The position numbers were made by a program, and so were the translations under genes. 64,000 bases of DNA from Dictyostelium discoideum (Eukaryota), in contig CM000152.2 of assembly GCA_000004695.1 (NCBI GenBank), forward strand, positions 736,001 to 800,000. The letters are read 5' to 3'. The notes under the pieces are model-generated. The model was not told the DNA's origin and did no database searches. It was given only the letters and a program-made list of their open reading frames with translations. Shown here piece by piece: positions 38,700 through 39,150 of the stretch. Each line of letters opens with the position of its first letter. Position 1 is the first letter of the stretch.

Positions 38700-39150
38700 A
38701 ATACCCAGGAATTACAATATTCTAATTAGCACATTTACCTTCGAAACACTTGACATAATAAATTAATATTACATGTTTGAAGTTTCTTTTTAGAAATAAA
38801 AAGAATGTAAATGAGGAGTGGTCGGTCGTTTCCTCGATTAGGATGAGAGGCATGTCTGACTCCCCAACTTTGCCCACTTTAACTGATTACAGCACGATCA
38901 CCCACTAATGATGCTTCATTGTATATGTGAATGATAAGGCTTCAAACCACCCGGCGTACAATGAAAATGTAAAAGAAGGACAACTCCAGAATAGAAAATT
39001 TTAATTCACCTACACAAAAAGATTAAAACAAAATAGAAATTAATCCATTTTGTTTTGTTTATCATTTAAAAAGTTGAAAAAAAATTATTGTATCTGTGAT
39101 GCCCCTCCAATTATGATCCATTGGAGTAAAAATCTTTGTAATACTCTTTA
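38700..39150. other. GC-enriched (~40-45% over the core), non-coding island in an otherwise ~85% A+T spacer. It is a candidate structured ncRNA gene or an element relic.
   Basis: No ORF longer than ~30 codons exists in any frame. Several local stems are visible (GGAGT..ACTCC, CCTC..GAGG, TCCAAT..ATTGGA). Box-C-like (AATGATGC) and box-D-like (GTCTGA) strings are present but in the wrong order for a C/D snoRNA. An ACCCAGGA string at 38709 only partly resembles the Dictyostelium upstream element of ncRNA genes (ACCCA[CT]AA, recalled from memory). Confidence 0.3.

Follow-up and report, generated by a model that had tools for sequence, protein, structure and literature searches.

The 2,672-bp spacer between dph6 and ddx23 on chromosome 3 of Dictyostelium discoideum consists mostly of DNA with a GC content of 6 to 15%, yet it harbors a short segment in which the GC content climbs to a peak of 0.50. 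This locus raises the question of what such a segment encodes. A sequence-only reading of the region had proposed a candidate structured noncoding RNA or, failing that, a relic of a GC-richer mobile element. Here, we examined the segment for coding capacity, membership in known RNA families, excess folding, published transcription, and presence in related strains and species. All positions refer to the window, i.e., the whole stretch of 64,000 nucleotides (nt) that was analyzed. A window coordinate plus 736,000 gives the position on chromosome 3 of D. discoideum AX4. This conversion was checked on three genes (reference coordinates: DDB_G0278371, chr3:770499-770858; dph6, DDB_G0278373, chr3:771365-773623; ddx23, DDB_G0277857, chr3:776296-778895; PMC5295588).

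A noncoding GC island in the dph6–ddx23 spacer

We defined islands by a GC threshold of 0.38 in 100-nt windows, which delimited a GC-rich core within the spacer (Table 1). More specifically, the GC content per 100-nt window was 0.30 at 38750, 0.46 at 38800, 0.42 at 38850, 0.37 at 38900, and 0.29 at 38950, and the flanks of the island had values of 0.06 to 0.15 (100-nt windows). A GC content of at least 0.46 was reached in merely 0.3% of all 100-nt windows of the 64-kb window. The jump in base composition within an A/T desert upstream of ddx23, as described from the letters alone, is thus real, but its extent had been overstated: the core measures ~230 bp rather than 300 to 450 bp, and the segments 38700-38765 and 39000-39150 are shoulders with 19 to 30% GC.

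At the 0.38 threshold, the 64-kb window contained 33 islands, 29 of which lay wholly within stop-free frames of at least 60 codons (exons). The dph6–ddx23 island lies within no such frame, which makes it unusual for this window. Its longest ORFs encode 51 aa (minus strand, 38722-38877) and 43 aa (plus strand, 38777-38908). An exact look-up of the small ORFs of the island in a collection of 15 billion proteins found none of them present, and a protein homology search with a 48-aa sense frame returned no homologue. The sole match of a 47-aa antisense frame, which is the one favored by GC periodicity, was a spurious tandem-repeat ORF. The GC island is noncoding, in agreement with the earlier statement that it lacks an ORF. 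Two short strings singled out in the same reading were also found in place (AUGAUGC at 38908-38914 and GUCUGA at 38854-38859); as had been stated, the GUCUGA/UGAUGC pair occurs in D-then-C order.

Table 1. Features of the dph6–ddx23 region discussed in the text (window coordinates)
Feature	Position	Strand	Remarks
dph6	35365–37623	minus	Diphthine–ammonia ligase
Shared block	38093–39642	none	1.55 kb; common to AX4 and D. discoideum strain L002 only
Putative core promoter	38528–38591	plus	From reading of the sequence
CUFF_2118_1 model	38585–39295	plus	27% GC; contains the whole island
T27 run	38655–38681	plus	Inside the transcript model, directly upstream of complex sequence
PF03121 match	38728–38823	minus	UL52/PrimPol-type primase zinc finger; weak, sub-threshold lead
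GC-rich core	38766–38998	none	233 bp; at least 0.38 GC per 100-nt window, peak 0.50
Box C/D-like arrangement	38806–38891	plus	UGUAA-AUGAGGA-65 nt-CUGA-UUACA; weak lead
Strongest local hairpin	38915–38965	plus	10-bp stem UUCAUUGUAU/GUACAAUGAA
Genomic A26 tract	39287–39312	plus	Contains the 3' end of the model (39295)
ddx23 ATG	40296		3' bound of the dph6–ddx23 spacer

The island lies within a published lncRNA model

The search of RNA-seq data that had been suggested for this segment led to a published transcript model. The whole island is contained in CUFF_2118_1, a curated single-exon intergenic lncRNA of 710 nt on the plus strand (chr3:774585-775295; Rosengarten et al. 2017, G3, PMC5295588, Files S6/S4). 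File S4 gives the same interval, with one exon and 710 nt; the CUFF identifiers are out of register with the coordinates in that file. The interval is listed in the D. discoideum intergenic lncRNA set, so that the locus is already known as a catalogued, uncharacterized lncRNA model, one of 621 (PMC5295588). This set was derived from strand-specific, rRNA-depleted RNA-seq data, and the inclusion criteria were (i) a length of at least 200 bp; (ii) a wholly intergenic position; (iii) strand-specific, uniquely mapped reads; (iv) at least 2 raw reads at any time point; and (v) no tiling path reaching a neighboring gene (PMC5295588). The rule of thumb behind the earlier reading, namely that an ORF-free GC island marks a noncoding transcript, thus held at this locus.

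CUFF_2118_1 resembles the other lncRNAs of the set in being single-exon and intergenic, in lacking a substantial ORF, and in its expression, which is uncorrelated with that of its neighbors (Spearman coefficients of 0.05 versus ddx23 and -0.08 versus dph6; PMC5295588). It differs from them in composition, as its core has 40 to 50% GC and the model 27%, compared with a median of 17% for lncRNAs and 13% for silent intergenic DNA (PMC5295588); the other lncRNA in the 64-kb window, CUFF_2120_1, has 13% GC. It also differs in residing in DNA that not all strains carry (see below). The high GC content of the core relative to the set median is left unexplained by membership in the lncRNA set as such, and it points to another origin of the DNA.

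Elements resembling a promoter were found at the 5' end of the model. A TATA-like sequence, ATATTTAAAAAT, occupies positions 38528-38539 and is followed by T17 (38569-38585) and T5 (38587-38591), and the 5' end of CUFF_2118_1 coincides with the end of the T17 run (38585). A TATA box followed by oligo(dT) is the usual layout of RNA polymerase II core promoters in Dictyostelium, and from this analogy we infer that 38528-38591 acts as the promoter. Positions 38455-38560 are identical in D. discoideum strain L002. Alternatively, transcription may start right after the T27 run at 38655-38681. At the other end, the model terminates within the A26 tract, and its true 3' end is therefore not placeable from the model.

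Because the inclusion filters were lenient, transcription of CUFF_2118_1 may be very low, and the ends of the model, which fall in T and A homopolymers, may reflect mappability instead of true transcript ends. These properties bear on a reading in which a few stray reads gave rise to the model and mappability fixed its bounds, and in which the island is inert relic DNA with artefactual or negligible transcription. That just 2 raw reads at any time point sufficed for inclusion (PMC5295588), that both ends lie in homopolymers, and that expression follows neither neighbor are all consistent with this reading. However, the model survived curation as one of the 621 lncRNAs, with an assigned strand and no tiling path to its neighbors, and the TATA-like box and oligo(dT) run are laid out at its 5' end as in a promoter. 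We consider an artefact quite unlikely.

The island belongs to a block of accessory DNA

The syntenic locus was retrieved by means of DPH6 orthologues from six further genomes (L002 to L007). AX4 and D. discoideum strain L002 alone have the shared block in common (Table 1), in which the island of L002 is 93.8% identical to that of AX4 over 484 nt, with 192 of 195 identical bases in the core. The island was absent from the syntenic site, which was the only site considered, in L003, L004, L005, L006, and L007. The spacer between ddx23 and dph6 measures 416 bp in D. cf. discoideum (L003), ~360 bp in each of two D. citrinum genomes (L004 and L005), and ~5 kb, with unrelated sequence, in D. dimigraforme (L006). 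The conservation in related dictyostelids that the sequence-only reading had suggested looking for is thus missing at the syntenic site.

The third D. discoideum strain, L007, has a dph6 gene that is 99.2% identical to that of L002, and the two loci remain collinear across ddx23 and a pair of monalysin-like BB_PF genes. In L007, a nonhomologous block of ~2.5 kb replaces the island block; within it lies another GC-rich gene, whose product is 167 aa of His/Gly/Ser repeats. In AX4, both BB_PF genes have been lost but their 3' flank (39657–39842) is retained. In view of the replacement block in L007 and of the presence or absence of the island among strains and species, the island, as judged from these alignments, sits in accessory DNA that comes and goes among close relatives.

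We then compared divergence between AX4 and L002. In clean alignment columns, the island diverged by 1.7% and the shared block outside it by 2.4% (Fisher P = 0.64). By this measure, the island is conserved no better than its A/T-rich surroundings, i.e., the alignment reveals no island-specific constraint. Four-fold sites of dph6 diverged by 6.0% (11 of 182) between the same strains, compared with ~2% for the whole shared block; this lower divergence of the block could result from constraint, or equally from a younger coalescence or from undercounting by the column filter.

The island matches no structured RNA family and shows no excess folding

Searches of the whole 64-kb window against Rfam 15 at gathering thresholds returned no matches. 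At a permissive E value of ≤10, five matches were obtained within 38200-39600, all of them at chance level and far below threshold; the best was mir-460, with 18.6 bits versus a threshold of 52 (E = 0.26). Rfam thus offered no usable match for the RNA gene that had been suspected here, and ARAGORN detected no tRNA or tmRNA. The Dictyostelium upstream sequence element (DUSE), which precedes snRNA, SRP RNA, and Class I RNA genes, has the consensus WCCCAYAA (i.e., [A/T]CCCA[C/T]AA); for Class I genes, its expected place is ~60 nt ahead of the transcription start site or TGTG box. In keeping with the earlier failure to match it, DUSE was absent from the spacer, and its only matches in the 64-kb window were at 1212 and 33633. 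The string ACCCACUAA at 38900-38908 has one extra base relative to DUSE.

As dictyostelid Class I RNAs might not be represented in Rfam, we turned to the curated D. discoideum set of Kjellin et al. (2021; PMC7919456), which comprises 37 sequences, built our own covariance model (R1) from 30 of them, and scanned the 64-kb window with filters off, taking as a Class I candidate any segment with an Infernal score of at least 15 together with a DUSE, or of at least 25 alone. The best hit scored 14.5 bits and was a partial match to low-complexity sequence at 38247-38273; on the plus strand of the GC core, the scan returned nothing. The string UUACAGCA at 38887-38894 agrees with the 11-nt Class I motif CCUUACAGCAA at 8 bases. 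We rejected it as a chance occurrence, as it is accompanied by no terminal stem, conserved ends, or DUSE, and no complementary 3' arm was found downstream of 38887-38894. Like Class I RNA loci (Aspegren 2004; PMC7919456), the island is a GC-richer intergenic patch with an 8-nt string matching the motif core. Unlike them, it has neither a 5'/3' terminal stem nor the GUUGA...GUCAACUG ends, shows no DUSE or TGTG-box layout, scores below threshold with the covariance model, and is far longer than the 42 to 65 nt of Class I RNAs.

Other small RNA classes fared likewise. For H/ACA RNAs, inspection of the folds by hand revealed no H box (ANANNA) between the two hairpins, the nearest ACA lay ~15 nt past hairpin 2, where an H/ACA RNA would carry it 3 nt from its 3' end, and there was no Rfam H/ACA match. 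A miRNA precursor was rejected, since the best hairpin has a stem of 10 bp (criterion, ~20 bp or more, so as to yield a 21-nt duplex), one pair of which is broken in L002.

Minimum free energy (MFE) z-scores for 38800-39000 were +0.25 (plus strand) and +0.42 (minus strand), i.e., there was no excess folding energy, and the z-score was -0.24 for 38682-39000 and ranged from -1.8 to +0.5 in sliding 120-nt windows of the core. The multiple short complementary stems that had been seen by eye are therefore not above chance. Lower values of -2.2 (full model) and -2.4 (38985-39144) were discounted, as they stem from homopolymer pairing and A/T-rich hairpins, one of which is destroyed in L002. Three substitutions distinguish the core of L002 from that of AX4, and none is compensatory. 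More specifically, G38921U disrupts the G–C pair in the middle of the strongest local hairpin (38915–38965), A38964G changes an A–U pair of the same hairpin to G·U, and C38955U affects an unpaired position. With no Rfam or Class I match, no DUSE, no excess folding, no compensation, and no counterpart at the syntenic site of related species, a structured small RNA (i.e., an snRNA, snoRNA, SRP RNA, RNase P/MRP RNA, telomerase RNA, or Class I RNA), the central proposal of the sequence-only reading, is not supported.

A box C/D-like arrangement within the core

One small-RNA arrangement deserves separate treatment. Our criterion for box C/D RNAs was a C box (RUGAUGA) and a D box (CUGA) 50 to 100 nt apart and capable of forming a kink-turn. 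No exact C box was found on either strand of the island, but the segment 38806-38891 presents an imperfect version. It could be read as a box C/D-type RNA of ~86 nt embedded in the island, for which the 0.7-kb transcript would be the precursor or host; AUGAGGA and CUGA would form the kink-turn, the 5-bp stem UGUAA/UUACA would close it, and sequences upstream of CUGA would guide 2'-O-methylation. The C-like box (AUGAGGA, 38811) retains both GA dinucleotides, and its distance of 65 nt to CUGA (38883) falls within the D. discoideum range of 50 to 97 nt. Moreover, the terminal stem comprises five contiguous pairs, the arrangement lies on the same strand as the lncRNA, and the segment is 100% identical in L002. 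Among 1,000 dinucleotide shuffles of 38550-39320, 18 did as well, in a test that was framed post hoc, after many other motifs had been tried.

Several observations weigh against this reading. The C box deviates from the consensus; the internal boxes, CUGA at 38856 and a UGAUGA-like one at 38840, stand in the wrong order (C-C'-D'-D); the MFE fold leaves the terminal stem unused; and the permissive Rfam scan (E ≤ 10) returned no snoRNA family. D. discoideum has 47 known box C/D snoRNAs (Diesend et al. 2022, PMC8817022), and the sequence is absent from the supplement of that study, which defined them by a genome-wide snoScan screen and RNA-seq. Three 2'-O-methylation sites are still without a guide (PMC8817022). 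A search of published full text for sequence strings of the island, in DNA and RNA alphabets, found none. The segment therefore resembles D. discoideum C/D snoRNAs in its intergenic position, C-like box, CUGA 65 nt downstream, and 5-bp terminal stem, and departs from them in the quality of the C box, the misordered internal boxes, and its place outside the validated set; in addition, it is neither conserved nor carried by all strains. Neither a closely related strain nor, at the syntenic site, the sister species carry the locus; a guide for rRNA modification would normally be expected in a sister strain as well, which disfavors a guide function. Overall, we regard a box C/D-type RNA at this position as very improbable. 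We give equally little credence to the broader notion that the GC core encodes a newborn, strain-restricted small RNA (e.g., the C/D-like segment 38806-38891, processed from the lncRNA as its host); if true, an RNA gene would have been born in accessory DNA, and natural D. discoideum strains would be polymorphic for its presence.

Origin of the island DNA

Two further readings concern the DNA from which the transcript arises. In one of them, the island and its left shoulder are a decayed protein-coding gene, e.g., the remains of a C-terminal UL52/PrimPol-type zinc finger on the minus strand, and the lncRNA would be residual or antisense transcription of this pseudogene. A stop-free minus-strand frame (38725-38886) matched PF03121 with E = 0.00097 and 19.4 bits, and its H...Y-x-K-C-F-E-x-x-C arrangement (H…Y-x-K-C-x4-C) resembles the second zinc-ligand half of this family; 10 reversed or shuffled controls gave no match. 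The GC content over 38801-38908 is phase specific (0.31/0.47/0.61). The locus is, besides, a hotspot of accessory genes, where other strains carry monalysin-like and His/Gly-rich genes.

However, the PF03121 score lies under the Pfam cutoff (19.4 versus 21 bits), and as 17 real peptides were tested, the corrected E value is ~0.02. The first Cys of the motif is missing, and in L002 a small inversion of a hairpin loop breaks the frame. The match covers the shoulder with 24 to 30% GC and not the GC core, and the low-GC phase belongs to another frame, the one that matched just a spurious repeat ORF. No other frame in 37700-40200 had a match; PDB, NCBIfam, and PHROGs gave no support; and a tblastx comparison with the alternative haplotypes and the parent gene clusters produced no match. 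A match of a 54-aa frame to a viral contig was rejected, as the frame is full of stops. Given that several dozen tests were made, the two results near P = 0.02 (i.e., the PF03121 match and the C/D-like arrangement) are about what chance would be expected to produce. A decayed gene is, in our judgment, unlikely.

In the other reading, the island is a fragment of mobile-element, foreign, or organellar DNA that persists in the spacer and whose transcription is incidental. Compared with the sister species, the block is indeed an insertion, not all strains have it, and its GC content is unusual for intergenic DNA of Dictyostelium. On the other side, a search of 38000-39700 for direct and inverted repeats (minimum length, 10 nt; minimum of 3 G/C) found none, the repeats of the island region being of low complexity only; no second copy exists in the 64-kb window or in the ~210 kb of fetched loci; and there is no transposase- or reverse transcriptase-like frame. 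Exact 24- and 25-mers of the island are absent from bacterial and archaeal genome and metagenome collections, and the published model rests on uniquely mapped reads (PMC5295588). Comparison of the island block with the extra genes of L002, the L007 block, and the parent BB_PF clusters (tblastn, tblastx, and sensitive blastn) was likewise null. Of the earlier suggestion of a mobile-element relic, the part that stands is that the DNA is inserted and varies among strains; terminal repeats and a second copy were not found in the sequence compared. A mobile or foreign source seems decidedly unlikely to us.

Discussion

We set out from the question of what a GC-rich, noncoding segment in a spacer of otherwise extreme A/T content represents. 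With moderate confidence, we favor the reading in which the island forms the core of a known mRNA-like lncRNA arising from a young accessory block, an RNA with no conserved structure or coding capacity and probably no sequence-specific function. Since the RNA has no detectable conserved structure, no known family, and no useful ORF, a young, probably functionless transcript is the most likely explanation. In this model, RNA polymerase II would start at the TATA-like box and oligo(dT) promoter (~38528-38591), traverse the island, and terminate near the A-rich tract at ~39290. The GC island would be the complex, uniquely mappable core of the resulting plus-strand noncoding RNA of ~0.7 kb, CUFF_2118_1. 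The source of the transcript would be the 1.55-kb accessory block in the ddx23/dph6 spacer, which is carried by some D. discoideum strains only; in sister species, the same spacer is a divergent ddx23/dph6 promoter spacer of only 360 to 420 bp. CUFF_2118_1 may thus be regarded as a young, mRNA-like transcript of decaying or recently acquired DNA, presumably acting through no sequence-specific function in trans.

The locus shares several properties with transcribed pseudogenes and de novo transcripts of accessory regions: it is lineage restricted, has an mRNA-like promoter layout and no ORF, shows no constraint above its surroundings, and adjoins strain-variable, toxin-like genes. Unlike transcribed pseudogenes, no parent gene was found for the island, and the sole protein-level hint is a sub-threshold zinc-finger match on the opposite strand.

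Nothing in this analysis suggests a conserved function for the locus. An ORF-free GC island in this genome marks a transcribed noncoding locus, yet a structured RNA does not follow from it. Between closely related strains, genes and blocks turn over in the ddx23–dph6 spacer, a hotspot whose variable content includes monalysin-like pore-former genes, a His/Gly-rich gene, and the lncRNA block. The presence or absence of this block among strains provides a natural contrast for testing whether such lncRNAs act.

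Other non-coding models and GC islands in the window, and two Class I-like RNAs

Two more published non-coding models lie in the window, CUFF_2120_1 and CUFF_2117_1 (PMC5295588), the first of which is too poor in GC to be counted as a GC island. The second runs antisense to DDB_G0278371, and the expression of the two is inversely related (Spearman correlation of -0.70; PMC5295588). The CUFF identifiers differ between two files of this source: the numbering of File S6 follows genome order, and in File S4 identifiers and coordinates are shifted against each other, such that chr3:774585-775295 is CUFF_2236_1 in File S4 but CUFF_2118_1, the model containing the AX4 island, in File S6 (PMC5295588).

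A second ORF-free GC island is strongly C/A-rich, preceded by a long T run and followed directly by an ATG at 56609. It has the appearance of a CA-rich promoter or 5' UTR, not of an RNA gene. The GC-rich segment of DdR-66 and DdR-67, GGUGUAGAAUAGGUGGGAGAC...GAAAUACCACC, is presumably similar to a conserved stretch of large-subunit rRNA. This segment is internal to both transcripts, which are long Class I-like RNAs (Kjellin 2021 supplement, PMC7919456).

Structural variation of the ddx23-dph6 spacer

The divergent ddx23-dph6 spacer is a hotspot of structural variation, as is evident from its length and content across the syntenic loci. Two strains with 99.2% identity in dph6 differ at one and the same spacer position, each having a block of about 2.5 kb that is not homologous to the other's. 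The alternative-haplotype GC island of strain L007 is called as a gene (167 aa, with HGGHSS-type His/Gly/Ser repeats), contains an internal inverted repeat of about 30 nt, and is not similar to the AX4 island.

Variation was also observed on a smaller scale between AX4 and L002, the D. discoideum strain sharing the AX4 island block: the arms CUUUUU and AAAAAG enclose a hairpin loop, AGAAAU(A), that L002 carries in inverted orientation, which breaks the minus-strand frame (38725-38886). Such an inversion is a mutation typical of non-coding DNA.

Coordinates of the features (window positions for AX4, otherwise positions in the locus)
Feature	Locus	Position	Strand	Remarks
CUFF_2120_1, lncRNA	AX4	51098-51759	+	13% GC
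CUFF_2117_1, antisense model	AX4	34334-34588	+	
Second GC island	AX4	56386-56570		peak 0.44
ddx23-dph6 spacer	AX4	37624-40295		2.7 kb
ddx23-dph6 spacer	L002 (D. discoideum)	3367-10000		6.3-6.6 kb, range with L007
ddx23-dph6 spacer	L007 (D. discoideum)	7889-14235		6.3-6.6 kb, range with L002
ddx23-dph6 spacer	L003/L004/L005 (D. cf. discoideum, D. citrinum)	about 9580-10000		360-420 bp
ddx23-dph6 spacer	L006 (D. dimigraforme)	4912-10000		5 kb, unrelated sequence
GC island	L007	13000-13631		40-55% GC
Inverted repeat	L007	13383-13412, 13499-13530		
Hairpin-loop inversion	AX4; L002	38785-38806; about 8062-8085		
BB_PF cluster	L008	5616-10940		
BB_PF cluster	L009	6085-10910		
BB_PF cluster	L010	8434-13856		

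Within the longer spacer of two non-AX4 D. discoideum strains lie two monalysin-like BB_PF genes. Monalysin-type pore-forming (PF18063 BB_PF) genes form clusters, each adjoined by a gene of about 300 aa, in D. discoideum, D. dimigraforme, and D. firmibasis, and the pair that some strains have beside ddx23 resembles a duplicate of a cluster of this type.
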